A stretch of DNA of 64,000 nt from Escherichia phage QL01, in sequence record NC_028847.1; one strand, 5' to 3'. The position numbers and the translations under genes were made by a program. Shown here in pieces: positions 5,796-48,249 of the stretch. Below the pieces are notes generated by a model. The model was given only the letters and a program-made list of their open reading frames with translations, searched no databases and was not told the origin of the DNA. Position 1 is the first letter of the stretch, and every line of letters starts with the position of its first letter.

Positions 5796-6062
5796 TTAAT
5801 CCTTTGGAGTCAATTCAATAGTGAAGTAGAAATTAGCGTTCTCAACATGATAACGGTAATCTACGTTATTGTCAGGAGAAGTGAATTCAATATTCCTGAC
5901 GTTAAGTGGGTCAATATCAATAGGAAGACCTTTAACATCCCGTAATATCAATTTAATAAAATAAGGGAGTGCTTCGAAGTCTTCCATTCCATCTAAAAGT
6001 GGAGTGATATTAATCTGATGTTCCATATAAAAAATCCAGTTCACCAACTTTAGGTTCGGCAC
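5796..6062 (-). CDS. hypothetical protein (true start probably internal; overlaps 3' end of gene 55)
   Basis: 88-aa minus-strand ORF; start uncertain. Confidence 0.35.
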
Positions 6063-6567
6063 TCTTATCAGACCCTGGTGCTTTAGTTAAAGAGGTTTCA
6101 TACTGAGTCATTTTGTCGTAGATATCTTGGATAAAGGTTTCATCTGCAATACCTACCATGTCGTCATCATTACTGTCATAGACATTATGGACGAAGTAGC
6201 TATATTTCTTTGCCATTTCTTTACGTTCTTTTTTGATACGCTGAACGAAGGCATTAAAACAAGCCATAGTGATATATGCATGTGGGTTGTCGTATTTTGT
6301 TTCGTCGAAGTTGTGAAGACCTTTAATCGAAGCTTCGATTCCATCAGCAATCATTTCTTGCTTCCAAGATTGGGTATATCCTGAGAAGTTGAAACGTTTA
6401 CTTAGTCCTTCAGCAATGAGCATAATAGCCAAGCCGATAACGTCGTTCTGGCGAACTATTTTATTAGGATCGGTATTTTCTCTGAGTTCTGTTTTCCATT
6501 GGGTGATAGCTTTCAGAAGCTCCTTATTATTTACATAGTTATTTTTAGTCAGTTTAATTTCGGTCAT
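6010..6567 (-). CDS. 55: late-transcription sigma factor gp55
   Basis: 185 aa, same length as T4 gp55; N-terminal NYVNNKELL and [45 protein letters not shown] block are T4 gp55-like. Confidence 0.88.
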
Positions 6568-9611: not shown

Positions 9612-10085
9612 TCATTTAAGCGATTTCCTCAGTTGTTTTTTAAATGAATCGACCATTTGTTTCTTAGTGTCAGATTCATTATAAGTCATTCCATGTGAAA
9701 GCATTTCAGCAATCATTTCTTCCTTACCTAACCTGCTGAACTCTTTGGTTTTATCAGGAACGAAATTAGGATGGATATTGTTTTCAGTATAATCAGCTTT
9801 CAGATAGACCAGCAAATTCTCTAACCATTCGAGGTAGTCAACGTTTTGACCTTTAAGACCAGAACGGTTGAACTTATGCTTCATTTGTCCTTCTGCAGCA
9901 TTGCACAGATTACATAGTAAACCACGAACCTTACCGGCTTTTGGCCCGTTCAATTCATGGTCGTGGTCAAGGTGGTTACTTTGAACATCAGGGTTTAATT
10001 CACGTTTACAAATCAAACACTTACCACATTGTGCATCATAAAGTTTTTGTTTTTCTTCTTTGTATAATTTGCCGGTCAACAACAT
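9612..10085 (-). CDS. 49: endonuclease VII (Holliday junction resolvase) gp49
   Basis: 157 aa, same length as T4 endo VII; N-terminal MLLTGKLYKEEKQK and zinc-binding CxxC...HDHELNGPKAGKVRGLLCNLCN block. Confidence 0.92.
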   Translation of the reverse strand: MLLTGKLYKEEKQKLYDAQCGKCLICKRELNPDVQSNHLDHDHELNGPKAGKVRGLLCNLCNAAEGQMKHKFNRSGLKGQNVDYLEWLENLLVYLKADYTENNIHPNFVPDKTKEFSRLGKEEMIAEMLSHGMTYNESDTKKQMVDSFKKQLRKSLK

Positions 10086-10120
10086 AATAAACCCTTACCA
10101 TTATTAGATAAGGGTATTTA
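10086..10120 (-). promoter_or_regulatory. hairpin (ACCCTTA/TAAGGGT) immediately upstream of gene 49 start, preceded by TAATAAATA (late-promoter-like, one mismatch)
   Basis: Plus-strand aaacccttaccattattagataagggtatttatt; parallels known hairpin control of T4 gene 49. Confidence 0.3.
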
Positions 10121-10330
10121 TTATTTTTCAAATGTACTATAAAACGAGCGATGCAACCGTTTAAATTGACGAATCATCTTTTTAGTAGGACGGGTGTATA
10201 ACCCTACACAAGTGGCCATAAACTGATCAGTAGGACTTCCTTTAATAAGAAGTTTCCAGACTTTACCGCCATTTAACTTTTCAGTATAAATCAGTTCAGT
10301 TTTCATAGTAAAACCCATATTCCATATCAA
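10121..10330 (-). CDS. hypothetical protein
   Basis: 69-aa minus-strand ORF. Confidence 0.35.
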   Translation of the reverse strand: MIWNMGFTMKTELIYTEKLNGGKVWKLLIKGSPTDQFMATCVGLYTRPTKKMIRQFKRLHRSFYSTFEK

Positions 10331-26249: not shown

Positions 26250-26846
26250 TTAATTACCACGGGCTGCATTAGCAACGGCGTAAGCGTACTGAATATTAGC
26301 GTCTTTAAACGTACCTTTAGAGGTATCTATCTCTGCCTTAAAGCCGCCTTTAACCATAACATCAGCAAATTCTTTACGGAAAGTCATTGCATCAAGACCT
26401 TTCCATGCGGATTTATGCTTGGCAAATTCAAGACCGGCGAAGTTAACTGCTTTAGCCAATTTATTATCAATAGTCCATTTACCTGCTTTAGGTACAAACA
26501 CCGGGCCTTTCTGTTTAGAGAACAGTTTTAAATTCCAGCGACGAAGGTCACCGTCAGCTTTAACAAAAGCTGCGTCCAAGTTACTAGCAACAACATCTTG
26601 GATATGGGCAAATTTAAGTCCATCAGCTTCAATATTTAGGTCGTTACGCCAGCGAAGTCCTTCCCAGGCGAAAGCTTTAAAATCAGAAGCTTTTGTAGCC
26701 AAGTACCGTTCAATAGGAGCTGTTTTAGCGTCAAAACCGTTTCCTGGGTTGTCAACGCCGTTTCCTTTGTAAGTCCACTCATCTTTATTAATGCCTTGGA
26801 CCTTTCCTACAGAAGCTTCGGCGATAAATTCTTTATACGTTTTCAT
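26250..26846 (-). CDS. internal protein with capsid-targeting sequence (ipIII-like size)
   Basis: Begins MKTYKEFIAEAS; 198 aa, Lys/Ala-rich. Confidence 0.7.
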   Translation of the reverse strand: MKTYKEFIAEASVGKVQGINKDEWTYKGNGVDNPGNGFDAKTAPIERYLATKASDFKAFAWEGLRWRNDLNIEADGLKFAHIQDVVASNLDAAFVKADGDLRRWNLKLFSKQKGPVFVPKAGKWTIDNKLAKAVNFAGLEFAKHKSAWKGLDAMTFRKEFADVMVKGGFKAEIDTSKGTFKDANIQYAYAVANAARGN

Positions 26847-26928
26847 ACGGGTTCCTTAAAGGAAAATATTTTAATTGGTCTGTTCAAGTAACTGTAGATA
26901 TACTATCACAATTCTAGGAGATGTAAAC
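26847..26928 (-). promoter_or_regulatory. T4-type early promoter cassette (GTTTAC-17 nt-TAGTAT) upstream of internal-protein gene
   Basis: gtaaac 26923-26928; partial core ctgtagatatactatcaca. Confidence 0.5.
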
Positions 26929-27327
26929 TTATTTATAGGTCTTCATCCAATTCTTGAACAAAGCCGCGACGTCTTTCTCTTTAACGTTCAGTTTAATGTC
27001 CAACATTTTACCACCCGCTGCTCTGGTTTGGCGAATCTTAGCAGTACCGGTTTCGCCATTCCACTCAACATAATACTGTCCAGTGTTCATTGCAATACCA
27101 TCACCGTAGTCTTCATTTTTAGAAGTGGTGAATGCTAGCTTCATAGTCTTAGATACACGAGCCTGCATGCCTGTCTGAAGGGCATTACGAACGCGAATAA
27201 CCTGAGGAGTGGCCTGGGTCAAGTTCTCATTCAGTTCTTCAGTGAACTCTTCAGATTCAAACATCGCCAAAAGTTCTTTAGATGCAGGAATTACATTCTC
27301 TGCGATAAATTCATTATAAGTTTTCAT
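26929..27327 (-). CDS. internal protein with capsid-targeting sequence
   Basis: Begins [12 protein letters not shown]; 132 aa; start overlaps end of gene e. Confidence 0.65.
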
Positions 27328-27808
27328 ATGCTTTCCAAGTACCTGTTTTAAATGTTGAAATCACGCGCTTAGCACGATTAGGAGTTTGTTTATACCAACG
27401 GGATTGAGCCAGGTTAACTGCCGCATCGTTCCAACGTTTCTGTTGGAGCATACGTAAAGAGTTAGTGAACCCTGCTACGCCTGCTTCACCCATTTGGAAG
27501 ACCATGTTAATTAAAGCACAACGACGAACTTCGTCCAGTACATCATAAACAGGTTTCAATTTAGGATTACGCAGAATAGCTCTACGAGCATTTTCAACCG
27601 ATTGGTTAAAGAGTTGTTCAGCTTCAGCCATAGTAATACGACCATTACAAACTCGACCCATAAGCTTATCAAGTTCAGCACGAGCAACATCTTTAGAAGG
27701 GTTCTTAGTAATCAATTGGCCAATACCAATAGTCCAATAACCTTCAGTGTCTTTATAAAGATTTAAATCAAGACCTTCGTCTTGACGTAACATATCAAAA
27801 ATATCCAT
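27314..27808 (-). CDS. e: endolysin (T4 lysozyme e family)
   Basis: 164 aa, colinear with T4 lysozyme; catalytic E11/D20/T26 equivalents in [30 protein letters not shown]. Confidence 0.95.
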
Positions 27809-27810
27809 AA

Positions 27811-27832
27811 TACCTCCTGAGTATAGGAGGTA
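27811..27832 (-). promoter_or_regulatory. SD-sequestering hairpin in endolysin leader (CCUCCU-loop-AGGAGG)
   Basis: Plus-strand tacctcct gagtat aggaggta: perfect 8-bp IR; the minus-strand AGGAGG arm is the SD 3 nt before ATG 27808. Confidence 0.6.
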
Positions 27833-27838
27833 TTTATA
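27831..27838 (-). promoter_or_regulatory. late promoter TATAAATA positioned to start transcription inside the endolysin hairpin
   Basis: Plus-strand tatttata at 27831-27838; same arrangement as described for T4 gene e. Confidence 0.55.
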
Positions 27839-28288
27839 TCAAAAGAGCGAATCTAAAACCTTAAACATCGACGGGCCCATGACATATTCCCATTGCGGAC
27901 GTTTAATCAAAGCGAACGCATCGAATTCAGGAATAGTACGACCATCAGGGAACGTATGGTAAGCCGTACATTTGCAATCCTTGAACTGCTCGTGTTCCAC
28001 AGGCACTGTATATAAGAACAGATGTAGATTCTTATTGCTTGAATATTTGAACTCACCTAGGTCTTTCAGGAACGCAGGATCGTATGCTGTGAATCCAATC
28101 TCTTCTTCGGTTTCGCGCATTGCCGCTTGAATGGGCTCTTCGCCTGGTTCGACATGACCCTTAGGAATGTCCCATTTATGACGCATATTCTCTGGATTAC
28201 GAGAGCCTGTTACACGGCCCATGACCAGTTCTTTATCAACGGTCATGAATAAAATACCGGCAGATAGTTCTTTCACTTTCTTACTCAT
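27839..28288 (-). CDS. nudE: Nudix hydrolase NudE
   Basis: Nudix box GHVEPGEEPIQAAMRETEEEIGF; start set at MSKKVKEL (internal Met of ORF 27839..28393); ~150 aa as in T4. Confidence 0.85.
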   Translation of the reverse strand: MSKKVKELSAGILFMTVDKELVMGRVTGSRNPENMRHKWDIPKGHVEPGEEPIQAAMRETEEEIGFTAYDPAFLKDLGEFKYSSNKNLHLFLYTVPVEHEQFKDCKCTAYHTFPDGRTIPEFDAFALIKRPQWEYVMGPSMFKVLDSLF

Positions 28289-28517
28289 CGTCTCGTTCCC
28301 ATGATTGTTTAAAAATATCTTGCATAATAATTTGAAGTCTATTTTCTGATGATGGACTTTCACTATCAGACACTTGAAGCATATAGTCACCAATAGGACA
28401 GAACATATCCATATCGCTTTCTAAGTCTTCTTTAATTTTCTCTTCTGATGTTCCGGTATCATAGGAATACAGGTAAGAATCACATGACTCAGATTTAATA
28501 TAAATTGCAATACTCAT
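28281..28517 (-). CDS. hypothetical acidic protein
   Basis: 78-aa ORF. Confidence 0.35.
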   Translation of the reverse strand: MSIAIYIKSESCDSYLYSYDTGTSEEKIKEDLESDMDMFCPIGDYMLQVSDSESPSSENRLQIIMQDIFKQSWERDDE

Positions 28518-29107
28518 TTACGGCATTCCTCAATAAACTCATTTAAATTCTGTTTGATTTTACCTTCGTCGTAAAGACGTTGTTGACGACGTAAACGCCA
28601 TGGCATTTCAATAGCCAAGCACCAAATACTTAAAGCAGCGCCAGCGGCGGCAAGGTTCATTAATCCAGCGCCAATAATAGTTCGTTCTAGCGCATCATTC
28701 CAGTTGGCATCGATTAAAAATGAACTCAGCACTAACATTGGAAGTAAAGTAATAAAATACGCTACAACATATCGTCCGAACGTAAGCCATTCAGTATCAA
28801 TGAGCCTGGCCTTTCCATCTTGGAGACAAATATACTTATCGTCAGTGCGAGTGATTTTCTTTACTGGTTGCCAGCCGTTTACAATATAGCCCATTTTATA
28901 TTCCTCAATTAAAAGCTGTTTCATTTCGGCAGTACAACCTGACCAATCTATTGTACTGGCTGAAATTCCTTCATCACCATCATCAATATTTCGCCAGGAC
29001 TTTTTAATAATCATAGTCTCACCACTTGGGATAATAATTCCAGCATTTTCCGACCGACGGATGAAGTTTGTATCAATACCCATACAACCAGGTTCATAAA
29101 GGGCCAT
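28514..29107 (-). CDS. hypothetical membrane protein (C-terminal TM segments)
   Basis: 197 aa; hydrophobic segments in C-terminal half. Confidence 0.4.
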   Translation of the reverse strand: MALYEPGCMGIDTNFIRRSENAGIIIPSGETMIIKKSWRNIDDGDEGISASTIDWSGCTAEMKQLLIEEYKMGYIVNGWQPVKKITRTDDKYICLQDGKARLIDTEWLTFGRYVVAYFITLLPMLVLSSFLIDANWNDALERTIIGAGLMNLAAAGAALSIWCLAIEMPWRLRRQQRLYDEGKIKQNLNEFIEECRK

Positions 29108-29793
29108 TACCAGCCCTCCATAGGGAATTCCAGATATACTTGAGCATTAACGCGGATTTCATTTGTAATCTTTTTAACACGGTCTGTATTACGAGACACA
29201 CGACCAAACCAGCGCCACCCGTTACTTACTGCACGAGAACCTGTATGCCATGTTTGCCAATCAAACTGGAGTAACGTGCGGTCAGGAGCATCCCACTTGG
29301 TTAATTCATTGGACTCAATTTTTTCCAGAACTTCTTTATGCCACTGGCGATAGATAAGTTCGCCTTCAGGAATCTGACTGAACTGTGCAGTTCCGGTTGC
29401 AAAATGAGTAGGACACACATCAGCGTTAACAAGACCAAGAATATGTTCAGAATGGTATCGAGGATTATCATAATCAGGTTGCCCTGCGGTAATAAAGTGT
29501 TGACCCACCGGAATATCCGGACGTGGTACATCATCATGGTGATAACCTGGGATAGCAGGATACCAGCCAGGCATTAACATGTGTACACGGGAATCAAATA
29601 CTACATCCGAGTCTTTCCAATCGTCAGGAAGATTTTGGATAAAGCTACGAGTAATTGGGCCGCCATTATCAAAAGCAAAATTCAAATCACAGTTAAAGAA
29701 CATAGGCTCGTTTTTAATCTGGTCGTTTTTAATTGCATGAGCAAAACCGCCTACTGCACGAGCTTGACTATTAAACACTTTAGAACTATTCAT
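29107..29793 (-). CDS. hypothetical protein (His/Asp-rich, possible metal-dependent enzyme)
   Basis: 228-aa ORF with SD GAGGAAA; no confident motif. Confidence 0.4.
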   Translation of the reverse strand: MNSSKVFNSQARAVGGFAHAIKNDQIKNEPMFFNCDLNFAFDNGGPITRSFIQNLPDDWKDSDVVFDSRVHMLMPGWYPAIPGYHHDDVPRPDIPVGQHFITAGQPDYDNPRYHSEHILGLVNADVCPTHFATGTAQFSQIPEGELIYRQWHKEVLEKIESNELTKWDAPDRTLLQFDWQTWHTGSRAVSNGWRWFGRVSRNTDRVKKITNEIRVNAQVYLEFPMEGW

Positions 29794-29807
29794 AATATTT
29801 TCCTCAC

Positions 29808-30020
29808 TTACTTTTTGTTGAAAAAGTACATTTTACCTTTAGGGGATAAGGATACACGAAGTGCGTTACCAATACCAACTGAACATTTAACCAGGTCAGC
29901 AGATTTCAATTCACCAAATGCTTGACGAAGGTCACCGTCACGAGTGTTAACCATCAGGCATTTAGCACCAGCTGCACGAACTTCGTTTAACATGTTGATT
30001 GCTTGGTTAGAAAGTTTCAT
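29808..30020 (-). CDS. hypothetical small protein (start MKLSNQ)
   Basis: Internal start preceded by GGAGAA SD and promoter cassette. Confidence 0.4.
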   Translation of the reverse strand: MKLSNQAINMLNEVRAAGAKCLMVNTRDGDLRQAFGELKSADLVKCSVGIGNALRVSLSPKGKMYFFNKK

Positions 30021-30086
30021 TTTATTCTCCATTTCACTCTGTTGTTTTGATAGGTCTATAGTATCACACCTATAGACCTTGTACAC
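30021..30086 (-). promoter_or_regulatory. PeSL-like early promoter cassette (core; IR AGGTCTATAG/CTATAGACCT flanking -10)
   Basis: Core 30046-30065; -35 variant GTGTAC (plus gtacac 30081-30086). Confidence 0.55.
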
Positions 30087-30098
30087 TGTTTTGTGCAA

Positions 30099-31058
30099 TT
30101 ATTTTTCGAAAGGACGAATTAAATGTTGGTTACGCTTAAACCGTTCAATGTAGTCGTTTTCACCTAAAGTCTTATACATATTCACTACAGCTTGGTAGTT
30201 TTCCCATGCATAAGTGCGGAACCAACCTGAAGTGATTGAGGTGCACACTTTCTCAAGGGCCATATAGAAACTTAATGATGGTGAAATATTGAAGTCATTA
30301 GGAACCTGTGAACGTTCTAGTGCCAGGACACAAGTTTCTTCATACACACCAGCCAGTTTAATAGCTTCAGGCAAAGCCTCGAACTTCTCACGAGAGGTCA
30401 TGACTTCAGAACCTTCCTTCATATAAAAGGTATATGCAGGGCGCCCTGCCAATGCCACTGCTTCATGAATAGAGTCATGGTCCAGCGTATAAATGGTATC
30501 ATTAAAGAACGATGATTTGTTTACGTCCAATTTAGGGTGAGAATAGCTCAACGTTTCTTTTTGACGTTGCAGCATAATTTCCTGGAGTTCTTCGTTAAGG
30601 GTGATACCTTTATTACGAAGGTATTTGATGTGTGACATAGTTTTCAAGAAGAACGGATTATTCTTAAGGAAACGATGAGAGGTTTTGATAGCCAGACAGA
30701 TATCAGGGGTGGCCCAATAGAAACCAGTAAGACGGTCCTTTTTAATATGATTTTCAGCATATTTCAGGAGACGATAGCTTGAAGTGAAATCTTCGTCTTG
30801 AAGCTCACCGGTAATTTCTCGTACGTTAGTCAGAGCACGAACGATATAAGCTTCAAAATAGGTTTCTTTACCATTATGCATACATTTGAAAGCCTGGACA
30901 TCAGGATTGTCAACGTGTACATGGGCGCCGAACATACGTGCTTTAAAGTGATTCCATGAGCCTTGGTCGGCAATGAAATCCCAATCAGAATTTTCGATAT
31001 GCTTACTTTCAATCAGACCAGCGTGGTGCAGTGCACGAGAACCAATAACTAACATCAT
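30099..31058 (-). CDS. hypothetical protein (start MMLVIGSRALHHAG)
   Basis: ~319 aa; SD GAGGAAA; no recognised motif. Confidence 0.45.
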   Translation of the reverse strand: MMLVIGSRALHHAGLIESKHIENSDWDFIADQGSWNHFKARMFGAHVHVDNPDVQAFKCMHNGKETYFEAYIVRALTNVREITGELQDEDFTSSYRLLKYAENHIKKDRLTGFYWATPDICLAIKTSHRFLKNNPFFLKTMSHIKYLRNKGITLNEELQEIMLQRQKETLSYSHPKLDVNKSSFFNDTIYTLDHDSIHEAVALAGRPAYTFYMKEGSEVMTSREKFEALPEAIKLAGVYEETCVLALERSQVPNDFNISPSLSFYMALEKVCTSITSGWFRTYAWENYQAVVNMYKTLGENDYIERFKRNQHLIRPFEK

Positions 31059-31077
31059 AATATTTTCCTCAGTAAAC

Positions 31078-31317
31078 TTAAATTTCAGCGACGTAATCGT
31101 TATGCAATTCCCACATATCATCAGAATTATTCTTAATGATAGGAATTATCTCATTAGAGATTTCTTCAGCATAAGGGTCATTGATACAGTGGGCATCTTC
31201 AAAACGAACACCGTAATCAGACTTCTTATAAGAGAAGCCATAAATCTTTTTAAACTTGGCGCGAGTAATGCGTACCGGTTCATTAGACTTATCGGACATC
31301 GGAGCGTAATACCACAT
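31078..31317 (-). CDS. hypothetical protein
   Basis: 79-aa ORF with upstream early promoter. Confidence 0.4.
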   Translation of the reverse strand: MWYYAPMSDKSNEPVRITRAKFKKIYGFSYKKSDYGVRFEDAHCINDPYAEEISNEIIPIIKNNSDDMWELHNDYVAEI

Positions 31318-31370
31318 ATGTTCTCCTCATGTTTGTGTAGGGTAATAGTAACATGATTTTCTAGAGTTGT
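31318..31370 (-). promoter_or_regulatory. T4-type early promoter (TGTACA -35-like, TGtTACTAT extended -10)
   Basis: Minus strand ...ATGTACAACTCTAGAAAATCATGTTACTAT...GAGGAGAACATATG. Confidence 0.4.
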
Positions 31371-31690
31371 ACATCACTTCTGCAATATTCTAAAAATAAT
31401 TTATCATTGTCTACTGTATCCCAACGACGCCAAGACGGGTTCCAGACCAAAGCGTTGTCACCACAATCATTGAGCTTAAAATGGTCGTAGTACATAGCTA
31501 TGTGTCTAGTCTCGTCACCAGAGAACCCCAGTATAGGCTCACCGCGGGTGTGATACATATGATGGTGCATTGAGAGGTCGCATTTGTAAAACATCTCACG
31601 TTTACCACGAACGAACAAGAAGGCCTGTCCATTCATATAGAATTCTTTATTTGTTTTCAAAAGATATTTGAATACTGAATCTTTATGCAT
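31361..31690 (-). CDS. hypothetical His-rich protein (start MHKDSVF)
   Basis: Internal start with AGGAGG SD; HHHMYH cluster. Confidence 0.4.
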   Translation of the reverse strand: MHKDSVFKYLLKTNKEFYMNGQAFLFVRGKREMFYKCDLSMHHHMYHTRGEPILGFSGDETRHIAMYYDHFKLNDCGDNALVWNPSWRRWDTVDNDKLFLEYCRSDVQL

Positions 31691-31720
31691 AAGTCCTCCT
31701 ACCACATCCATGTGGTTAAA

Positions 31721-31948
31721 TTATTTTCCTAACGAAATACGAGTAGGTTTTTTACCGAAATAGTCTTCATAAGAACCATCTAAACGACCTGCTTTAGACC
31801 GACAATATGAATCGTACTTTTTGTAATAAGTCATCTCAGTATTATAACGCGGGTGTCTATCAGCCATAATAATACTTAACGGCCAACCTTTGGCATAATC
31901 GCGAAGACCATTTATTTTACGAATGTATCTTTTCTTTAATTTTAGCAT
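31721..31948 (-). CDS. hypothetical basic protein
   Basis: 75-aa ORF; start overlaps stop of upstream paralog. Confidence 0.4.
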   Translation of the reverse strand: MLKLKKRYIRKINGLRDYAKGWPLSIIMADRHPRYNTEMTYYKKYDSYCRSKAGRLDGSYEDYFGKKPTRISLGK

Positions 31949-32166
31949 GAGCTCGGATACCAGATTTTACCATCGGCCTGAGCAACGAAGGTGCGACCAG
32001 CTTCTTCGCCATAACACGAGCTATTCAGCCAATCTTCGAGACGAACTTCACCGTCATAATCGTCGAGCTCAACACCAAAACTTTGAGCAGAAGCCATATC
32101 TTTTACTTTCTTATACAGTGCAGCCAGTTCAAGTGCAGCTTTTTCTAATTCATTAATATCAGACAT
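31942..32166 (-). CDS. small acidic protein, paralog family member 1 (C-terminal W-Y-P-S-S-C)
   Basis: 74 aa; ends GKIWYPSSC. Confidence 0.5.
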   Translation of the reverse strand: MSDINELEKAALELAALYKKVKDMASAQSFGVELDDYDGEVRLEDWLNSSCYGEEAGRTFVAQADGKIWYPSSC

Positions 32167-32177
32167 TTTTTATCACC

Positions 32178-32390
32178 TTAGCAAGACATAGAGGATGTAA
32201 ACCAGAAACCTTCACCTTCCGGAATACCGTAGTCATCACGGACCCATTCGTAATCATCATATTCCGGGTTCTTTGGAGAAATGTATTCTCCACGACCAGA
32301 AACACGGAACTCTTCACCCGTTTCGTCAGCCACAGACTGGCCTTTACGTACTAATTCACGGATTTGGTTTTCAATTTCATCAATAGTCAT
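32178..32390 (-). CDS. small acidic protein, paralog family member 2 (C-terminal W-F-T-S-S-M-S-C)
   Basis: 70 aa; ends GFWFTSSMSC; stop embedded in TAAGG SD of next gene. Confidence 0.5.
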   Translation of the reverse strand: MTIDEIENQIRELVRKGQSVADETGEEFRVSGRGEYISPKNPEYDDYEWVRDDYGIPEGEGFWFTSSMSC

Positions 32391-32399
32391 TTTATTTCC

Positions 32400-32681
32400 T
32401 TAACATTCAGAAGAAGAGGACACCCAACCACCATTTTCTAGGCTGGTAGTGTAATCATGTTGGTTTACAATAGCGTACTGAGCTTCACCGTATTCTTCCC
32501 AGTGGGCAAGGTCGGCTTTCAAGGCGCCAGGAGAATAATAGTCACCGCCCATACCGCGAGCAGGGTATATATTAAAATGAGTCTCATATTTGTTTGCAAT
32601 TTCCTCGGCACGACGAATAGCTTTATGGATATCATTTACTGCTTCAGCCAATTCTTTATTTTTATGGTAATCATTCATCAT
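32400..32681 (-). CDS. small acidic protein, paralog family member 3 (C-terminal W-V-S-S-S-S-E-C)
   Basis: 93 aa; ends GGWVSSSSEC. Confidence 0.5.
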   Translation of the reverse strand: MMNDYHKNKELAEAVNDIHKAIRRAEEIANKYETHFNIYPARGMGGDYYSPGALKADLAHWEEYGEAQYAIVNQHDYTTSLENGGWVSSSSEC

Positions 32682-32690
32682 AGCGTTTCC

Positions 32691-32981
32691 TTAGCACATT
32701 GCCGAAGAGGAGATCCAAGCACCAACTGTAACGACGCCATTTTCAACTTCACCACCGTTGTTTTCAATTTCATCTTTAAACCACTGGGAGCATTCATAAC
32801 CGACAGGATAATATGTACGGCCTGAACCATAATCACCAGTACCGAATTGGATACCATACTTATCGGCAATAGCTTCACATTCATGTTCGATGGTATTCAC
32901 TTTATTCAGAAGAGCATAGATAGCCTTTTCTGCAGATTTCTCGTCATTGTGTTCCGGGATTTCAATTTCAATTTTATTCAT
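32691..32981 (-). CDS. small acidic protein, paralog family member 4 (C-terminal W-I-S-S-S-A-M-C)
   Basis: 96 aa; ends GAWISSSAMC. Confidence 0.5.
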   Translation of the reverse strand: MNKIEIEIPEHNDEKSAEKAIYALLNKVNTIEHECEAIADKYGIQFGTGDYGSGRTYYPVGYECSQWFKDEIENNGGEVENGVVTVGAWISSSAMC

Positions 32982-33331
32982 GATTTACATTCCTTAATAA
33001 AGGTTTCAAGGTCATTACGTTTAGTTTGTTTTACATACTCATTATAATTAGCCATAGCTAAAGCATATCTCTTTTTACGTGGCTTGTTTATTTTATTAGT
33101 TTGGGCAATATCAAAGACCCATGGGATAAAAAATCCTATTAAAGCCGGAACCCAAATCCATGCAAGGCTCATATCTTCAAACGGATGGCGAGGCATACCA
33201 TTAATAATCCCACCGACAAGAAATCCAATTATCCCTGCAGTCATACTAGTAGCAATGCCGAGGAATAAGGAAATAGCTATATCATAATCTGCTAATGCGT
33301 AACCAGGGTCGGTTTTACTAGGCTTATGCAT
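32978..33331 (-). CDS. hypothetical membrane protein (2 TM; start MHKPSK)
   Basis: Internal start with AAGAGG SD; two long hydrophobic segments. Confidence 0.45.
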   Translation of the reverse strand: MHKPSKTDPGYALADYDIAISLFLGIATSMTAGIIGFLVGGIINGMPRHPFEDMSLAWIWVPALIGFFIPWVFDIAQTNKINKPRKKRYALAMANYNEYVKQTKRNDLETFIKECKS

Positions 33332-33788
33332 TTTGAACCTCTTTAGCGTATTCGCGACATTCAGTAATAAAACGATTAAGTTTACGTTGTTGTTTACGAA
33401 TCTCTGATGTATACTCATTGGCTAAAATAATAAGCTCATCTTTATCGTAATTTTTAATATCCGAATAACTCGGGCGGCGGTCGACCATACCAAAGTGGTC
33501 ACCATTTTCTAACATCAAATAGCATACTAAATGGTAATCATCGTCGGCATCAACAAGCTGTTTATAATCGCTTGGTTCATTTAAAGAGTATACTGAATAG
33601 CGTAGCTCAGCTAAAGCAAAGATAAAGGGTAATTTGGTAGTATGCTCACGGCTAGATGTTCTGCTTAAGAAATCGTTTGAATAGCCTAGGTCTTGGCGAA
33701 TTCTATAAAGAACTGAATTGGTTTCATGGGAAAGACCACTATTTTTAAACCAATCAATATTTGATATCAGGTCGTCGTATAAACTCAT
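33324..33788 (-). CDS. hypothetical protein
   Basis: 154-aa ORF. Confidence 0.45.
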   Translation of the reverse strand: MSLYDDLISNIDWFKNSGLSHETNSVLYRIRQDLGYSNDFLSRTSSREHTTKLPFIFALAELRYSVYSLNEPSDYKQLVDADDDYHLVCYLMLENGDHFGMVDRRPSYSDIKNYDKDELIILANEYTSEIRKQQRKLNRFITECREYAKEVQNA

Positions 33789-33804
33789 AATATTCTCCTC
33801 TCCT

Positions 33805-33829
33805 CCAAATAGGGAGACCGAAGTCTCCC
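33805..33829 (-). terminator. UUCG-loop hairpin (GGGAGAC-UUCG-GUCUCCC) after gene 33837..34430; weak U-tract
   Basis: Plus-strand gggagaccgaagtctccc; may be partial terminator or RNA-stability element. Confidence 0.4.
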
Positions 33830-33836
33830 GGTAACA

Positions 33837-34430
33837 TTACTTAAGTGAATTAATGTAGTCTTCGATATCAGCAGAAGTCGTATCCATTCCAACTTGCGGG
33901 CCTTTAAACGTTTCTACGCGCAGTAGGGTGTCTTCAATATCAATCTTGGTCAGTGCAGCGATTTCAACAACATCGTCGGCAGTAGCAATACCAAGGGCAG
34001 CCATATTACGAGTTTCACGGATGTACTCGAGCTTAACAGCCAGTTCCTGACGAGAGTCATCAAGTTCCTTAACCTTCAGTTTAATTTCATTACGCATTTC
34101 GATATAATCATCGGCTTTCTTCCGAAGCTGAGTAGCTGTACGACGATAAAGGAGACCGAGTTTAGCATGTACCTGGACATCAGAGCCTTCGGCAATCAGT
34201 TTACGAATTTCACGTTCTTTAGAAGCAGCGAGCTGGTCCTTTTCATTAGCCAAAGCACGAATACGTTTTTCTTCATTCACAGACTTAACATGAGCAGTCT
34301 GGAGTTCAGTGATTTTATCAATCAGAGTAGAAGCAGCTTTGGTGTATTGGTCTTCGATTGACAGGTTCTGAGTCATTGCGGTGCCCAGTTTAGAACGAAT
34401 GAATTCAACGATTTTCTTTAAAGTGTTCAT
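33837..34430 (-). CDS. hypothetical coiled-coil protein
   Basis: 197 aa, almost entirely heptad-like. Confidence 0.45.
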
Positions 34431-34503
34431 AGTATTTCCTTCAGTTGGTTAACGTTTTGTAATCCATGAGGACATTATACCCTGTCCTCTGAGGTTTGTA
34501 AAC
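34431..34503 (-). promoter_or_regulatory. T4-type early promoter (GTTTAC-17 nt-TATAAT) with IR GAGGACA/TGTCCTC flanking -10
   Basis: gtaaac 34498-34503; arms 34468-34474 and 34483-34489. Confidence 0.5.
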
Positions 34504-34506
34504 ATT

Positions 34507-34905
34507 TTATTTCATTTTTGCGAGGCAGATTTCATTGGCTTCCCATTGAGCTTGCTTAATAATAGCTTTGGATACAGGAACCCTTTGGCCATAAGTTTTT
34601 GATGTTGAGAGAACAATATGTTTGTTTGCTTCATTATGCCAGCCCCATGATTTTTCGCCATGAGTACCTTTAACTACAGCTGACACCTCAACAGAGCAAC
34701 CACCATCAGAAATCTTGGTTTCGACAACCCATTCATTTCTCTCGACAGCTTCAATTTCCAATCTAGTTTTTTCTTCATACATCGCGGCCCAATCAGTTTT
34801 TGCCAAGTTGAAAGCAAGAGCTTTCTCTAATTCTTTGGCATATTTTTGTTGTTCGGGTGTTAATGAATTATACAACTCTTGCATTTCTTTATCTTCGATA
34901 TTCAT
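34507..34905 (-). CDS. hypothetical protein
   Basis: 132-aa ORF. Confidence 0.45.
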   Translation of the reverse strand: MNIEDKEMQELYNSLTPEQQKYAKELEKALAFNLAKTDWAAMYEEKTRLEIEAVERNEWVVETKISDGGCSVEVSAVVKGTHGEKSWGWHNEANKHIVLSTSKTYGQRVPVSKAIIKQAQWEANEICLAKMK

Positions 34906-34961
34906 TATGTTCTCCTCAAATTATGGGGCTCATAATATCTTAATAATGAGCCCATGTAAAC
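34906..34961 (-). promoter_or_regulatory. T4-type early promoter (GTTTAC, TATTAT) with IR flanking -10
   Basis: gtaaac 34956-34961; near-palindrome atggggctcat / atgagcccat. Confidence 0.45.
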
Positions 34962-34964
34962 GTT

Positions 34965-35228
34965 TTATTTCATATTATTGAAATAATTTTCTGCATCAAA
35001 ATCACTACCATGGTAAACTTTGGTAGACGATTTGGCGTAACCTTCAGCTGAGAACATATTAATCACAACTTTAATTGTATACCACTGTCCATCTTCATTA
35101 CCCATTACTGCATAGGTTTCATACACCGGGTGTTCAGGACCGATAACCTTAATATCGTTAACTGTGGCACCAAATTCTTCCGGAACACATTTCATAAAGA
35201 AATTAAACACTTCACCATAATTATCCAT
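34965..35228 (-). CDS. hypothetical protein (start MDNYGEV)
   Basis: ATG start with AAGGAG SD; ORF-track start is a GTG 5 codons upstream. Confidence 0.4.
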   Translation of the reverse strand: MDNYGEVFNFFMKCVPEEFGATVNDIKVIGPEHPVYETYAVMGNEDGQWYTIKVVINMFSAEGYAKSSTKVYHGSDFDAENYFNNMK

Positions 35229-35292
35229 TTTACTCTCCTTCACTCTGTTGTTTTGATAGGTCTATAGTATCATGTTCTACGAAAGAGTAAAC
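35229..35292 (-). promoter_or_regulatory. PeSL-like early promoter cassette (core ttgataggtctatagtatca)
   Basis: Core 35253-35272; gtaaac 35287-35292. Confidence 0.6.
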
Positions 35293-35315
35293 ATCTTTTT
35301 TAAACCTTTTAGAAA

Positions 35316-35345
35316 CAAAAAAGGCCCAACCTTTCGGAAGGGCCT
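35316..35345 (-). terminator. intrinsic terminator (GGCCC...GNRA-loop...GGGCC plus U6)
   Basis: Plus-strand aaaaaaggcccaacctttcggaagggcct after gene end 35350. Confidence 0.55.
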
Positions 35346-35349
35346 AGAA

Positions 35350-35904
35350 TCAGTTCTTGTAGAACCGGAATGGGTTTATGTGGAAGGCTAACATAGCCTT
35401 AGGGATTTTACGAGACAAAAGGCTCTTAAGCTTCCAACCACAGTACACGCGAAGGTAAAAGGTAATCCCACCAACCTTAAGATATGGAACTGAAGCAAAT
35501 ACACCCCAGGCGTCGTCATTCCACATCCATAACCACCCGTGATGAGCTTTATCAGGAGAACCGGATTCCACGTCGGGATTACCTCGATAATGGAATTCCG
35601 AGCTACAATCACGACCGAGTTTATGGTAAGCAAAGTTATAAGCTTTATTTCGCCATAGCCAAGCTACTCTCTGAAGATAAACACCACCCGGCATTTTCCT
35701 GATGTTAGCCCAACGTTTAATATGACCTTTATCACCGTCAATTGGATTATCGTATGTCATCATCCAATCAAAGCCGTACGGTAATTTACCTGTCTTTTTA
35801 TTGTGGAAAGGAACCACAAATGGTGCAAGGATAACAGCCAGAACCATAGAGATAAAATCCAGTGGAACCAACAGAACCCAACTCAAATATTTTAAAAGTT
35901 TCAT
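35350..35904 (-). CDS. hypothetical membrane protein (N-terminal TM; start MKLLKYL)
   Basis: Internal Met directly after upstream terminator; ORF track extends to 36009 through the hairpin. Confidence 0.4.
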   Translation of the reverse strand: MKLLKYLSWVLLVPLDFISMVLAVILAPFVVPFHNKKTGKLPYGFDWMMTYDNPIDGDKGHIKRWANIRKMPGGVYLQRVAWLWRNKAYNFAYHKLGRDCSSEFHYRGNPDVESGSPDKAHHGWLWMWNDDAWGVFASVPYLKVGGITFYLRVYCGWKLKSLLSRKIPKAMLAFHINPFRFYKN

Positions 35905-35917
35905 ATATTTCTCTAAG

Positions 35918-35945
35918 TTAACCAAAAAGCCCCAGACGGGGCTTT
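35918..35945 (-). terminator. intrinsic terminator (AAAGCCCC-GUCU-GGGGCUUU plus U-tract)
   Basis: Perfect 8-bp stem directly after internal-protein gene stop at 35948. Confidence 0.55.
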
Positions 35946-35947
35946 CG

Positions 35948-36412
35948 TTATTTGATTTGTTTAGCAGACCAGATACGGTCTTTGATGATTTTCTGAATAT
36001 CTTCAACATACTCTAAGTCGTGAGCATGTGGATTATCTTTGAAGCTATGTGCTCGTGCCAGTTTCTGGCCTTCTGTTTTGATTACTAAAAGCTCTTTAAG
36101 AATTGCTTCATACTTAGAAATAATTCCTTTGGCGATATTTTTTTCTTGAGCGGCTTTAGGGTCCGCTTTTGACGCAGGTGCTTTACCTGTAGCTTTCTGG
36201 AACAATTCACCTGAGGCAGCTAGGCTTTTAAAAACTCGGCTAACAGTATTGGCATTAGTAAAACCTTCGGCTTTAAAATCTTTAATAAAACGGAAACGTT
36301 CTTCATCAGAGGCGTCTTTGTAAGAATATTTACCTGCTTGAATTGCTGCAATCGCAGCGGCTTTTACATCTGAACTAGATTGTTCAGTCAAAAATTCATT
36401 GTAAGTTTTCAT
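35948..36412 (-). CDS. internal protein with capsid-targeting sequence
   Basis: Begins MKTYNEFLTEQS; 154 aa, Lys/Ala-rich. Confidence 0.65.
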   Translation of the reverse strand: MKTYNEFLTEQSSSDVKAAAIAAIQAGKYSYKDASDEERFRFIKDFKAEGFTNANTVSRVFKSLAASGELFQKATGKAPASKADPKAAQEKNIAKGIISKYEAILKELLVIKTEGQKLARAHSFKDNPHAHDLEYVEDIQKIIKDRIWSAKQIK

Positions 36413-36857: not shown

Positions 36858-36932
36858 TGGTATCCCGCCCTGGGATCGAACCAGGACCGCAAACTTAGAA
36901 GGATCGTATGCTATCCATTACACCAGCGGGAC
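36858..36932 (-). tRNA. tRNA-Arg (anticodon TCT), CCA encoded
   Basis: Minus strand GTCCCGC...anticodon loop CTTCTAA...T-arm CCTGG-TTCGATC-CCAGG...GCGGGAT-A-CCA; 7-bp acceptor stem with one G-U. Confidence 0.8.
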
Positions 36933-36937
36933 GTAGT

Positions 36938-37014
36938 TGGTGACCCAGACCAGATTTGAACTGGTAACCTTTCCCTTATGAGGGGACTGCTGCTAACCAT
37001 TGAGCTACAGGGCC
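36938..37014 (-). tRNA. tRNA with CAT anticodon (Met or lysidine-type Ile), CCA encoded
   Basis: Minus strand GGCCCTG TAGCTCAATGG...anticodon loop CTCATAA...T-arm ACCAG-TTCAAAT-CTGGT...CTGGGTC-A-CCA; one U-U mismatch in acceptor stem. Confidence 0.7.
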
Positions 37015-37292: not shown

Positions 37293-37460
37293 CTCAAATA
37301 AAATTAAGTAAAGTAAGTTTGATTAATAGACCTTGTCTATTATGAAAGGTTCTTTGAGGGAAGAACCTTTGGTAATAGAGGGTATTAATGATAGAGTAAT
37401 AATAACACATTACTCTTAAAGCATATTACTATTTTTAGGAATAGTCTGGTCAAATTTGAT
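37293..37460 (-). promoter_or_regulatory. 168-nt non-coding spacer with three inverted repeats (10-bp AAAGGTTCTT/AAGAACCTTT; 8-bp AGAGTAAT/ATTACTCT; TAGAC/GTCTA)
   Basis: No ORF; perfect IRs at ~37355-37380 and ~37395-37420. Confidence 0.3.
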
Positions 37461-38911: not shown

Positions 38912-38977
38912 TTTGATTTCCGTTTGGTTAGTTTGTTTTGATAGGTCTATAGTATCATGCCTATAGACCTTGTAAAC
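38912..38977 (-). promoter_or_regulatory. PeSL-like early promoter cassette (core; IR AGGTCTATAG/CTATAGACCT)
   Basis: Core 38938-38957; gtaaac 38972-38977. Confidence 0.6.
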
Positions 38978-42602: not shown

Positions 42603-43039
42603 CCTAATTTTTTCAGTGAGTTTTCGGTAATCAATCTGAAATTAATTCCCATTTTATCTGCTGTAGCTTTAGCAGCTTTCCATTTATCTTTATTTACACT
42701 CCATGTATAATGTTCGTTGATATATCTCTTTTTAGCAGCTGTAGTCATTTTAGCAGGCGCCGCTGGAGGATGGGTCTCTTTAAAAGGTTTGACTTCGAAA
42801 AAGAATTGTTGACCATTGTCGAACTTCACCCAGAAGTCCATAAAATACCGACGTTTCTTTCCATCAGCGTTACTAAAATATGGAATCACAACCTCTTCCG
42901 AGTTCCACTGGACGACATTAGGATGGTTGTCAAGCCAACGCATAAGCCATGCTTCCCAAGAGGAACGATATTGGATTTTCTTCCAATCACCTTTATATTT
43001 TTGTAAGTTTGTAGGTTTAAATTTCCCTGAGTAGGCCAT
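42590..43039 (-). CDS. 4: head completion protein gp4
   Basis: 149 aa; divergent from gene 53 across a shared late-promoter region as in T4. Confidence 0.8.
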
Positions 43040-43049
43040 AGTGCCTCCT

Positions 43050-43057
43050 TATAAATA
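43050..43057 (+). promoter_or_regulatory. late promoter TATAAATA for gene 53
   Basis: Exact T4 late consensus; 27 nt upstream of ATG 43085. Confidence 0.6.
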
Positions 43058-43064
43058 TTAATAT

Positions 43065-43072
43065 TATTTATA
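43065..43072 (-). promoter_or_regulatory. late promoter TATAAATA for gene 4
   Basis: Plus-strand tatttata; exact consensus on minus strand. Confidence 0.6.
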
Positions 43073-43084
43073 CTCGGAGGCACT

Positions 43085-43687
43085 ATGCTCTTCTCATTTT
43101 TCGATCCTATAAATTACGAATCAAAAACAGTCAAGCCAGATTCCGGCTCATTAACTGATGCCGATGTACTGAGCGTACCGATGACTGATATATTTAGAAA
43201 CTATAAAGAATATTTTGATAAAGTGGCTAAAAATTATACACTTAAAACATATTATATCAGTGGGGCCCCTCGTCCAGAAGAATTAGCCCATCAACTTTAT
43301 GGTAACGTGCAATTATATTGGGTTTTATTGATGTGTAATAACGTATATGACCCTTATTACGGCTGGATTACAGGCCAAGAATCTGCGTATCAAGCAGCTA
43401 TTCAACGTTATGCTACTGCAGGCGGAAACCAAGTCCTTTATCATGTCAATGAAAAGGGTGAGAAATTCTGGAATCTAGTAAATACTCCGGAAAATCCTTA
43501 TACTTGGTACGATAAAGGTGATACAGAAAAACGTTATCCTCAATATGAAGGTCCTTTGGCTGCAGTAGATATTTACGAGGACGCCATTCGTAAAAATGAA
43601 TATAAGCGCGAAATAAAGATTATAGACCCTAATGACATCGAGTCCTTTGTTTCCGCTTTAATTAGAGAAATGGAGAAAGCCCTCTAA
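43085..43687 (+). CDS. 53: baseplate wedge protein gp53
   Basis: 200 aa; first gene of plus-strand late module. Confidence 0.85.
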   Translation: MLFSFFDPINYESKTVKPDSGSLTDADVLSVPMTDIFRNYKEYFDKVAKNYTLKTYYISGAPRPEELAHQLYGNVQLYWVLLMCNNVYDPYYGWITGQESAYQAAIQRYATAGGNQVLYHVNEKGEKFWNLVNTPENPYTWYDKGDTEKRYPQYEGPLAAVDIYEDAIRKNEYKREIKIIDPNDIESFVSALIREMEKAL

Positions 43688-46263: not shown

Positions 46264-48222
46264 ATGGCTACTCCTACGAATTACCAATTAACAAGAACCG
46301 TTAACGCTATCCCAAAAGTATTTGTGGGAGCTACGTTTGAAGAGATTAAAAAGAATATTATCGATTGGCTTTCTAGCCAGGACGAATTTAAGGATTACGA
46401 TTTCGTTGGTTCGCGAATGAATATCCTGATTGACATGCTAGCTTACAACACCCTGTATATGCAGCAGTTTGCTAATACTGCAGTATATGAATCTTTCATC
46501 GGTACTGCTAACTTGCGTTCCTCCGTCGTCCAGGCTGCACAGGATAACGGCTATTTGCCAAGTTCTAAATCAGCAGCCAAAACAAGTATCATGTTGACCT
46601 GTACTCAAGCCCTGAATGAAAAGAATATTCGTATCCCACGTGGTACTAAATTCCTGGCCTATGCTCGTGATACTTCAGCGGACCCATACGCTTTTGTTAC
46701 CACGGAAAACGTTATTGCCGTACGTGATGTTAATAACCAATATCTTCCTATCGTATCTTTAGCACAAGGCCGTATTATTCGTACCGAACTTAAGTATGAC
46801 CCTAAAACTCCTATTCTTATTCGTGACCCGGATATTGATAGACAGGAAGTTAAACTTTATGTCGATGGCGCAGAATGGACTAACTGGACTAATAAATCCA
46901 TGGTTCATGCTGGTAGTACATCAACAATTTACTATATGCGTGAAACCGTAGATGGTAATACTGAATTCTTCTTTGGTGAAGGTGTTGCTGAAAAATCAGT
47001 TGCAGGTGGGGTATTAGAAGCTAATTATATTGGTGGTTTAAAACCTGTTAAAGATGCTACTATTGTTATAGAATATCTTCGTACTGATGGCGAAGTTGCT
47101 AACGGGGCGGTGGACTTTAGTTATGCGGATTCTTTGGCATATATTACGGTTGAAAAAATTACAGAAAACTACGATGAAAATCCGGATTATGTAGGTGCTG
47201 ATGGTGGTGGTGACCCTGAAGATATTGAACGTATTCGCGAATTGGCTGTAGTTAAACGTGAAGCCCAGATGCGTGCTGTAACTGGTACAGATTATGATAC
47301 ATTCGTTTCGGAGCGATTTGGGTCTATTGTACAAGCAGTACAAACCTTTACGGACCCAAATAAACCAGGTTACGCCTTTGTTACCATTAAACCTAAATCA
47401 GGATTGTATTTGACGGCAGTACAACGTGAAGATATCCAAAATTATCTTTCAGAATTTAACTTGGCACCTATTACCCCTTCGGTTATTTCTCCTGACTACT
47501 TGTTCTTGAAGCATAAAATTAAGGTTTCATATGCACTGAACAAATTACAGGAATCCGAACAATGGTTAACGGCTCAAATCCTTTCTCAAATAGACCGTTA
47601 TTATATTAACGAAGTTGAAATATTCAACCATGGATTTGCCAAGTCTAAAATGTTGACTTATATTGATAATGCAGACCACAGTATCCTTGGCTCTTCGGCT
47701 ACGGTAACAATGGTTCGCGAGGTATTAAACTTCTTCAAAACACCTGAAGCGGGTATTAAATACTATAATCAATACACCAACCGTTCTGTAACTTCTAGTG
47801 AATTTGAGTTCGTCCCAACAAACGTATCCGATGTTGTTAAATCTTACAACGTACGTATTGTTGCCACAGATAAAGACGAACGAGGCGATGGTAAAATGGT
47901 TATAGGTCCTTTCCGACCTGGCGATGTAATTGAAAACCAATACATCCAACCTTACACCGGAGATGACTTCGATAAAATGGCAGCGCCTGCAGACCAATCG
48001 GTCTACTATGTTATTGGCGAAATTGATTATTACTCGGACTTTATTTTCTGGGATATCGCCGCAATAGGCCTTACTTCCGACCGTTTTGAAGTCCAGTCTA
48101 TTGAACTTTATGCAGGGCCAGACCAAGACAACATCTTTACCAAAGACGGTTCTTTAATCGTATTTGAAGATGACCTTCGTCCTCAGTACACAACTATAGA
48201 GTTGGAACCAATTACAATATAA
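46264..48222 (+). CDS. 6: baseplate wedge protein gp6
   Basis: 652 aa; synteny 5-6-7. Confidence 0.9.
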   Translation: MATPTNYQLTRTVNAIPKVFVGATFEEIKKNIIDWLSSQDEFKDYDFVGSRMNILIDMLAYNTLYMQQFANTAVYESFIGTANLRSSVVQAAQDNGYLPSSKSAAKTSIMLTCTQALNEKNIRIPRGTKFLAYARDTSADPYAFVTTENVIAVRDVNNQYLPIVSLAQGRIIRTELKYDPKTPILIRDPDIDRQEVKLYVDGAEWTNWTNKSMVHAGSTSTIYYMRETVDGNTEFFFGEGVAEKSVAGGVLEANYIGGLKPVKDATIVIEYLRTDGEVANGAVDFSYADSLAYITVEKITENYDENPDYVGADGGGDPEDIERIRELAVVKREAQMRAVTGTDYDTFVSERFGSIVQAVQTFTDPNKPGYAFVTIKPKSGLYLTAVQREDIQNYLSEFNLAPITPSVISPDYLFLKHKIKVSYALNKLQESEQWLTAQILSQIDRYYINEVEIFNHGFAKSKMLTYIDNADHSILGSSATVTMVREVLNFFKTPEAGIKYYNQYTNRSVTSSEFEFVPTNVSDVVKSYNVRIVATDKDERGDGKMVIGPFRPGDVIENQYIQPYTGDDFDKMAAPADQSVYYVIGEIDYYSDFIFWDIAAIGLTSDRFEVQSIELYAGPDQDNIFTKDGSLIVFEDDLRPQYTTIELEPITI

Positions 48223-48249
48223 ACCTCTTCGGAGGTTTAAGGAGATTTA
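48223..48249 (+). promoter_or_regulatory. UUCG-tetraloop hairpin (AACCUC-UUCG-GAGGUU) between genes 6 and 7, followed by AAGGAG SD
   Basis: Plus-strand acctcttcggaggtt right after gene 6 stop; no U-tract, so probably not a terminator. Confidence 0.35.

Follow-up and report, generated by a model that had tools for sequence, protein, structure and literature searches.

A late promoter in the 5' arm of an SD-masking hairpin at the endolysin gene of Escherichia phage QL01, a very probable counterpart of the T4 gene e control element

Gene e of Escherichia phage QL01 (NC_028847.1) encodes a T4-type endolysin and lies on the minus strand of the 64,000-nucleotide stretch analysed here (the window), immediately downstream of the co-directional gene nudE. 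Read along the minus strand from 27840 to 27806, the leader separating the two genes is ga-TATAAATA-CCTCCT-ATACTC-AGGAGG-TATT-ATG, in which a late promoter motif, the two arms of a hairpin and the SD of gene e overlap or adjoin one another. The features at the locus, together with the gene for the late sigma factor elsewhere in the window, are the following.

27839-28288, minus strand: nudE (Nudix hydrolase), upstream of e and co-directional with it, part of the early cluster (Pfam NUDIX; JS98 annotation)
27831-27838, minus strand: gp55-type late promoter motif TATAAATA, at promoter positions -13 to -6 by the published T4 rule
27825-27834, minus strand: hairpin 5' arm AAUACCUCCU, containing the anti-SD CCUCCU (27830-27825, promoter positions -5 to +1)
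27824-27826, minus strand: predicted late transcription start, +1 = 27825 (+/-1 nt), placed from motif spacing
27819-27824, minus strand: hexaloop AUACUC
27809-27818, minus strand: hairpin 3' arm AGGAGGUAUU, made up of the SD AGGAGG (27818-27813) and the 4-nt spacer UAUU
27314-27808, minus strand: gene e, T4-type endolysin, 164 aa, start codon 27808-27806
6010-6567, minus strand: gene 55, late sigma factor (E = 6e-94 to gp55, PDB 7D7C chain F)

TATAAATA is immediately preceded by the stop codon of nudE (TGA, 27841-27839), which is 4 nt from the 5' side of the stem, and the final four bases of the promoter motif, AAUA (27834-27831), double as the outer 5' arm in read-through RNA. An earlier reading made from the sequence only had placed TATAAATA at 27831-27838, 8-bp arms within 27811-27832 and the ATG at 27808, and all of these coordinates are right. 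The perfect hairpin that it described is present, but the stem is 10 bp long rather than 8 bp (AAUACCUCCU/AGGAGGUAUU, 27834-27809), and AGGAGG and AUG are separated by 4 nt (UAUU), not by 3 nt. That reading had also expected a late transcript to start inside the 5' arm and leave the SD unpaired; in the predicted late RNA the SD is indeed much freer, but the start, 27825, falls on the final arm nucleotide, next to the loop.

To place the locus among known phages, we compared a 1.1-kb region, which proved to share 99.1% identity with Escherichia phage WG01 and 91-98% with other Dhakavirus/JS98-like phages; judged by this similarity, the window is that of a Dhakavirus. The product of gene e shares 123 of 164 residues (75%) with T4 e (NC_000866), matches T4 lysozyme chains with E = 3e-82 and has a Pfam Phage_lysozyme match, and the protein is accordingly divergent from T4 lysozyme, as had been suggested, but by 25% and not by about 30 percent. 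The gene order e.8...e.2-nudE-e-ipIII-denV, taken from the ORFs of the window and the annotated JS98 genome, is co-directional throughout, as in T4, and strong sigma-70-like promoters lie upstream at ~34.5-35.0 kb. A terminator scan of 26800-36000 found no terminator-like site on the minus strand between nudE and e. In an Rfam scan of the whole window, only two tRNAs reached the gathering score and no family matched at the e leader, a result that says nothing against a T4-type assignment, since the T4 e leader is no Rfam family; the T4 GenBank records, likewise, carry no promoter or stem-loop features annotated at e. On the opposite (plus) strand, a 10/12 sigma-70-like match, TTGACG-18-CATAAT (27782-27811), runs antisense to the first e codons and ends in the hairpin 3' arm; this match is probably due to chance, because such sites are as numerous in shuffles.

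The late motif of T4, TATAAATA, occupies promoter positions -13 to -6, and this 8-bp motif alone defines a T4 late promoter (Nolan et al. 2006, PMC1524935). Applying the same -13 to -6 spacing rule (PMC1524935), which gives a predicted and not a mapped start for QL01, we found that TATAAATA at 27838-27831 places +1 at 27825, with CCUCC at -5 to -1 untranscribed and 0 anti-SD nucleotides left in the RNA. The late sigma factor gp55 is encoded within the window, indicating that the trans-acting factor for TATAAATA is present. Gene 45 probably lies outside the window, because in T4 it is upstream of gene 46. The motif is not enriched in the 64-kb window (9 observed vs 7.15 expected), and with a count this near expectation we rejected over-representation of TATAAATA as evidence.

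Folding of the 26-mer 27834-27809 gave a hairpin of -13.1 kcal/mol (z = -4.2 vs shuffles), and RNA starting at 27825 retained a weak alternative fold of -3.7 kcal/mol that is no better than shuffles (z = -0.17). By partition-function prediction, AGGAGG has a mean probability of 0.013 of being unpaired in read-through RNAs of 100 and 160 nt, with core G residues below 0.001; the value for RNAs that start at 27827, 27825 or 27824 is 0.26-0.32, and their AUG is 0.65-0.90 unpaired. The SD of the predicted late RNA is still partly engaged in weak alternative pairing, its probability of being unpaired being ~0.3 and not 1. The 64 kb contain 4 perfect hairpins with a stem of at least 10 bp and a loop of 3-8 nt, as against 0.81 per dinucleotide shuffle, and perfect hairpins of at least 8 bp yield 24 stem/loop solutions (about 21 distinct sites), as against 8.5 in shuffles. 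A chance hairpin falling exactly on the SD of a given gene is unlikely, though not astronomically so, and the feature is clearly non-random because motif and hairpin keep their relative position in every related lineage examined.

Some 1,900 phage records hold an e homologue. To follow the design across phages, we gathered e loci from IMG/VR and GenBank phages, obtaining 17 distinct leaders from about ten T4-like lineages (Dhaka-, Gapriver-, Mosig-, Tequatro-, Kanagawa-, Winkler-, Jiaoda-, Marfa- and Gelderlandvirus, together with PM2-like and S13/Ci1-like phages). All 17 carry a late motif, which is TCTAAATA in S13 and Ci1 and otherwise (N)ATAAATA; among Tevenvirinae e leaders the position of (N)ATAAATA is always the same. 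An SD-masking stem of -10 to -18 kcal/mol, pairing 4-5 of the 5 core SD bases, was likewise found in every one of the 17 leaders, and the predicted +1 leaves 0 anti-SD nucleotides in 15 representative ones, a count for which COW86c was read by its AATAAATA motif and not by an overlapping CTAAATA. When the promoter-to-SD spacer was shuffled, masking was recreated in only 0-14 of 1000 trials per leader. The way in which the helix is built around this core differs between lineages: leaders of the Dhaka, T4, RB69 and Gelderland types lengthen it at its outer end, on the promoter side and the AUG side (AAUAC/GUAUU), and those of the Kanagawa, Winkler and Jiaoda types at its inner end (AUC/GAU, AUA/UAU or AU/AU). 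In the e homologues of Vequintavirus, Stephanstirmvirinae, Aeh1 and Tulanevirus, motif and hairpin were both absent.

A MAFFT alignment of the leaders was off by one base in the 5' arm, where ATAC-CTCCT and ATA-CTCCT classes meet, and an N-padded hand alignment was used instead; the pair counts were made on this hand-made, structure-guided alignment and are biased towards structure. With that bias, standard pairs fill 89.7% of the cells of the hand alignment, compared with 37-58% when the partners are slid by 1-3 columns. Among its 13 pairs, 6 are invariant, 2 change on both sides (in one sequence each) and 2 more vary through G-U pairs (in two sequences each); the covariation observed was matched in 8 of 500 shuffles. 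Classical covariation is weak because each arm also serves another purpose, as promoter or as SD, and sequence conservation alone could retain much of the arm complementarity. The argument from conservation rests on the rebuilt helices, the spacer shuffles and the experiments in T4.

A variant arrangement among the 17 leaders is that of Cronobacter phage S13-like (L018:1440-1495) and Citrobacter phage Ci1 (L096:1360-1410), which share with QL01 an e orthologue (65% identity), an AGGAGG masked by a stem, here a wholly different one of 14 bp (CCUCUUCUAAA/UUUAGAGGAGG), and a late-type motif within the hairpin. They differ in that the anti-SD lies upstream of the motif TCTAAATA, the predicted +1 falls in the 3' arm, and the surroundings are a tRNA cluster with grcA nearby and not nudE. 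The outer pairs of the S13 and Ci1 stems differ from each other by compensatory AA/UU to UU/AA swaps. Their motif TCTAAATA is the CTAAATA variant that has been reported for the late promoters of Aeh1 (PMC1524935).

Paired SDs were also seen at more distant lysozyme genes. Four IMG/VR contigs of ~18-33 kb (L030-L033, about 1440-1500) carry T4-lysozyme homologues, 45-50% identical, whose SDs pair with upstream CCUCUUAU or CCUCAUAAAUA segments that contain ATAAATA-like strings. Divergent unnamed ORFs lie upstream of these genes, and downstream in L032 is a 436-aa ORF with a putative serine-recombinase-like N-terminal motif, a gene context that suggests prophages. We rejected these four contigs as an extension of the design beyond T4-like phages: they have no co-directional upstream gene, and the T4 logic is for that reason not obviously applicable. 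A further contig (L034:1053-1500) has an e homologue that is 40% identical and a bulged 14-bp SD-masking stem (CCUCAUAAAUAUUU/AGAUAUUUAAUGAGG) containing CATAAATA. Upstream of it, on the opposite strand, is a putative GIY-YIG (seg-like) endonuclease ORF recognised by motif, and the downstream DNA resembles tail-fibre genes of T4-like Aeromonas phages, so that the contig is probably a fragment of an unclassified T4-like phage.

The sequence-only reading had proposed that this leader reproduces the temporal translational control described for T4 lysozyme, a proposal supported by orthology, synteny, folding, promoter placement, gp55 and the conservation of the leader. From the anatomy, fold energetics, orthology, synteny, gp55 presence and design conservation documented here, we infer how the element would function in QL01 itself, and we conclude that the QL01 e leader is very probably the functional orthologue of the phage T4 gene e translational control element. 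RNAs made from the co-directional e.8...nudE cluster early and midway through infection would extend into e. In this read-through RNA, AAUACCUCCU, just past the nudE stop, is predicted to pair with AGGAGGUAUU, and the resulting 10-bp hairpin would sequester the SD and block 30S initiation. Late in infection, RNA polymerase bearing gp55 would bind TATAAATA, which overlaps the start of the 5' arm, and transcription would begin ~6 nt past the motif, at a predicted position of ~27825. Late mRNA would thus start beyond the anti-SD, would form no hairpin and would be translated. Lysozyme in the cytoplasm is not lytic without holin, and the selective reason for the control is therefore less obvious than usually stated.

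The one rival with some life holds that the hairpin enforces coupling, such that ribosomes terminating on nudE would melt the 5' arm, e would be translated early in proportion to nudE, and the late promoter would only add mRNA. The geometry favours it: the nudE stop (27841-27839) abuts promoter and stem, the distance from stop to stem is just 2-7 nt in RB69-type, Dhakavirus and T4 leaders, and when the 12 nt past the stop are held single-stranded, the probability that the SD is unpaired becomes 0.25, as in late RNA. A 9-nt footprint, however, leaves the CUCCU/AGGAG helix in place and the SD masked (probability unpaired 0.044), and a terminating 70S would be expected to clash sterically with a 30S ~20 nt downstream. 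T4 moreover has the same layout, with a 7-nt gap, and according to the passage on e in a review makes ~100-fold less lysozyme from long transcripts (PMC3014915). We consider coupling of this kind quite improbable as the role of the hairpin; the 4-nt distance from nudE stop to stem, taken with the footprint folding, makes some early leak by coupling possible. Alternatively, the stem-loop might serve chiefly to form or protect the 3' end of the early nudE operon, as an intrinsic terminator or an exonuclease block, in which case its overlap with the SD would be incidental. Its position directly past the nudE stop, its stable stem of -13 kcal/mol and a U-rich stretch from ~12 nt downstream (UAUUAUGGAUAUUUUU) fit such a role, but the scan of 26800-36000 did not call it, no T-run lies within 2 nt of the stem, and what follows the stem directly in QL01 is AUGGAUAUUUUU. 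In addition, the stems of Kanagawa-, Jiaoda- and Winkler-type phages are followed by GUCCUAUGG, with no U-tract, the SD itself is always the 3' arm, and T4 early transcripts do reach into e, by the account in the same review passage (PMC3014915). We rejected an intrinsic terminator on the lack of a U-tract immediately after the stem, and a 3'-end role of either sort is very unlikely indeed.

The remaining explanations dispense with a role for the RNA fold. If the inverted repeat acted as DNA, as a protein-binding palindrome or a need of this particular late promoter, RNA folding would be irrelevant, and the repeat is in fact a perfect DNA palindrome that overlaps the promoter. Other TATAAATA sites before late genes (36445, 58892, 63840 and others), however, have unrelated sequence at -5 to -1, the 8-bp motif is sufficient to define a T4 late promoter (PMC1524935), and lineages alter the sequence, length and register of the palindrome yet keep its complementarity to the SD, which makes a DNA-level role exceedingly improbable. 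The palindrome could, finally, have arisen by chance from an A/T-rich promoter beside a strong SD; TATAAATA is not enriched in the window, and ~8.5 perfect hairpins of at least 8 bp are expected per 64 kb. To this we give next to no credence: hairpins of at least 10 bp are expected only 0.81 times per 64 kb, masking occurs in 17 of 17 leaders and is almost never recreated by spacer shuffles, and the structure in T4 has been demonstrated experimentally, as reported in the review's treatment of e (PMC3014915).

Besides orthology with the T4 element, we considered a joint reading in which the hairpin would be a ribosome-operated gate and not only an off switch, and an anti-SD at -5 to -1 of a late promoter would be a reusable module; we think this reading unlikely. 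As a gate, the hairpin may be opened transiently by terminating nudE ribosomes, giving low early lysozyme coupled to nudE translation; in the leaders of Dhakavirus and Mosigvirus 2-4 nt separate the nudE stop from the stem, as against 7 nt in T4. As a module, the design may recur in this phage, with e and gene 49 as instances and genes 4/53 carrying a symmetric, crossed version.

At gene 49 (endonuclease VII; ORF 9612-10085, with Pfam PF02945 and PF09124), the leader AATAAATACCCUUAUCUAAUAAUGGUAAGGGUUUAUUAUG (10086-10128, minus strand) shares with that of e a late motif in the 5' arm of an SD-masking stem, and it differs in its stem sequence and its SD (AAGGG) and belongs to a different gene, the two leaders not being homologous. 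Its layout is AATAAATA-CCCUUAUC...GGUAAGGGUUUAUUAUG, the stem abuts the AUG, and RNA from the predicted late start loses the stem. The window thus holds two instances of the design with the promoter in the 5' arm, at e and at gene 49.

Genes 4 (minus strand, ATG 43039) and 53 (plus strand, ATG 43085) are divergent, and in the region 43036-43087 two TATAAATA promoters (43050-43057, plus strand, and 43072-43065, minus strand) cross, with predicted transcripts that overlap by ~5 nt at their 5' ends. The intergenic region is wholly palindromic (CATAGTGCCTCC...GGAGGCACTATG), and the SD-to-AUG segments of the two genes are mutually reverse complementary. Read-through or antisense RNA is predicted to mask SD and AUG (-33.6 and -32.9 kcal/mol, z -9.2 and -7.4), and in the predicted late RNAs both would be unmasked (-5.4 and -5.9 kcal/mol). 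This crossed-promoter, SD-symmetric layout is kept in Mosig-, Kanagawa-, Moon- and Gelderland-type phages, the spacers being lineage-specific and still complementary, and at T4 genes 4/53 the complementarity ends at the SD (-17.6 kcal/mol, z -1.8). We know of no published description of the crossed 4/53 layout.

Several other structured elements were observed in the window. Two near-identical 28-nt perfect hairpins, AGGTCTATAG-N8-CTATAGACCT, lie at 30052-30079 and 38943-38970 and differ from each other at 2 loop positions only; a minus-strand ATG follows each at a distance of ~40 nt, and no such hairpin would be expected by chance. One of the ORFs that follow begins MKTYQEFI... and resembles an internal head protein, and the flanks are conserved (AAAATAATT...T(T/G)TACA before, ATCAAAACAA after), so that from their sequence the pair look like a repeated promoter/operator module with a palindromic spacer. 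At 48217-48252 (plus strand), a UUCG-tetraloop hairpin, AAACCUC-UUCG-GAGGUUU, preceded by ATATAAAC, stands directly 5' of the SD AAGGAG and ATG 48250 and leaves the SD unmasked; such a stem may serve a late gene by stabilising the 5' end or by positioning the TIR. The sequence AAAGGAGC-UUAG-GCUCCUUUUUUG at 5059-5078 (minus strand) is a clean intrinsic terminator, 32 nt upstream of a 205-aa ORF (4409-5026) that overlaps the start of gene 47 and is a putative GIY-YIG homing endonuclease by its motif YIGST. The window contains only two tRNA genes (Arg-tct and Met-cat, 36858-37014 and 37324-37416, minus strand), and 3 perfect 8-10-bp hairpins within 95 nt lie directly upstream of the two; this cluster could represent small stable RNAs or processing signals of the tRNA region.

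Taken as an orthologue of the T4 element, the e leader of QL01 would exemplify textbook temporal control by promoter choice, the gene being shut off on the long RNAs of early infection and expressed from the short late ones. The comparison of leaders points to an element under selection across about ten T4-like lineages, and to one invariant part of the design: the late -10-like motif and the start site stand on either side of the anti-SD. For annotation, a late promoter and a regulated TIR can be assigned to e in JS98- and WG01-like therapeutic phages, and poor expression of e is to be expected from cloned fragments that carry the upstream 30 nt.

The QL01 e leader is already known in kind, being a plain orthologue of a system that has been described and comparatively surveyed, and an intact element in a Dhakavirus is nothing new in principle. 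In T4, long early transcripts enter e and form an inhibitory structure (McPheeters et al. 1986, NAR 14:5813, as cited in PMC3014915), and lysozyme synthesis from these long transcripts is reduced ~100-fold (Uzan & Miller 2010, PMC3014915, in its passage on e). For related T4-type phages, similar leaders have been predicted, and in each a late promoter is located where the 5' strand is encoded (PMC3014915, section 29 and the legend of its Fig. 5); JS98 is not named in that review's text on leader conservation. Our literature search returned nothing specific on the e leader in papers on JS98, and no usable transcription-start-site transcriptomics for T4.

Set side by side, the leaders of QL01 and T4 both precede an orthologous gene that follows nudE, and they are identical in the outer stem AAUAC/GUAUU, the SD AGGAGG and the spacer UAUU. 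Both have TATAAATA directly before the anti-SD and a predicted late start beyond it; the T4 sequence, read from NC_000866, is ...TATAAATACCTTCTATAAATACTTAGGAGGTATTATG, also given as ...TTTTATAAATACCTTCTATAAATACTTAGGAGGTATTATG. The differences are ones of detail: T4 has two TATAAATA promoters, the second in the loop, and QL01 one; the anti-SD is CCUUCU with a G-U pair in T4 and a perfect CCUCCU in QL01; the T4 hairpin has an 8-nt loop and an 11-bp stem, that of QL01 a 6-nt loop and a 10-bp stem; and the gap from nudE stop to stem is 7 nt in T4 and 4 nt in QL01. The review's account of inhibitory TIR structures in T4 includes gene 49, e, soc and I-TevI (PMC3014915). It further describes hairpin-sequestered ribosome-binding sites that are relieved on late-promoter transcripts for I-TevI (T4 td intron) and for mobE of Aeh1 (PMC3014915, citing PMC2988022 and PMC2655525). 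As likened here from the text of the review, these two systems share with e a timing set by the promoter that makes the 5' end and a hairpin whose 5' strand is promoter-proximal, and they differ in that their genes and sequences are unrelated and that what they limit is a nuclease, not a lysis enzyme.
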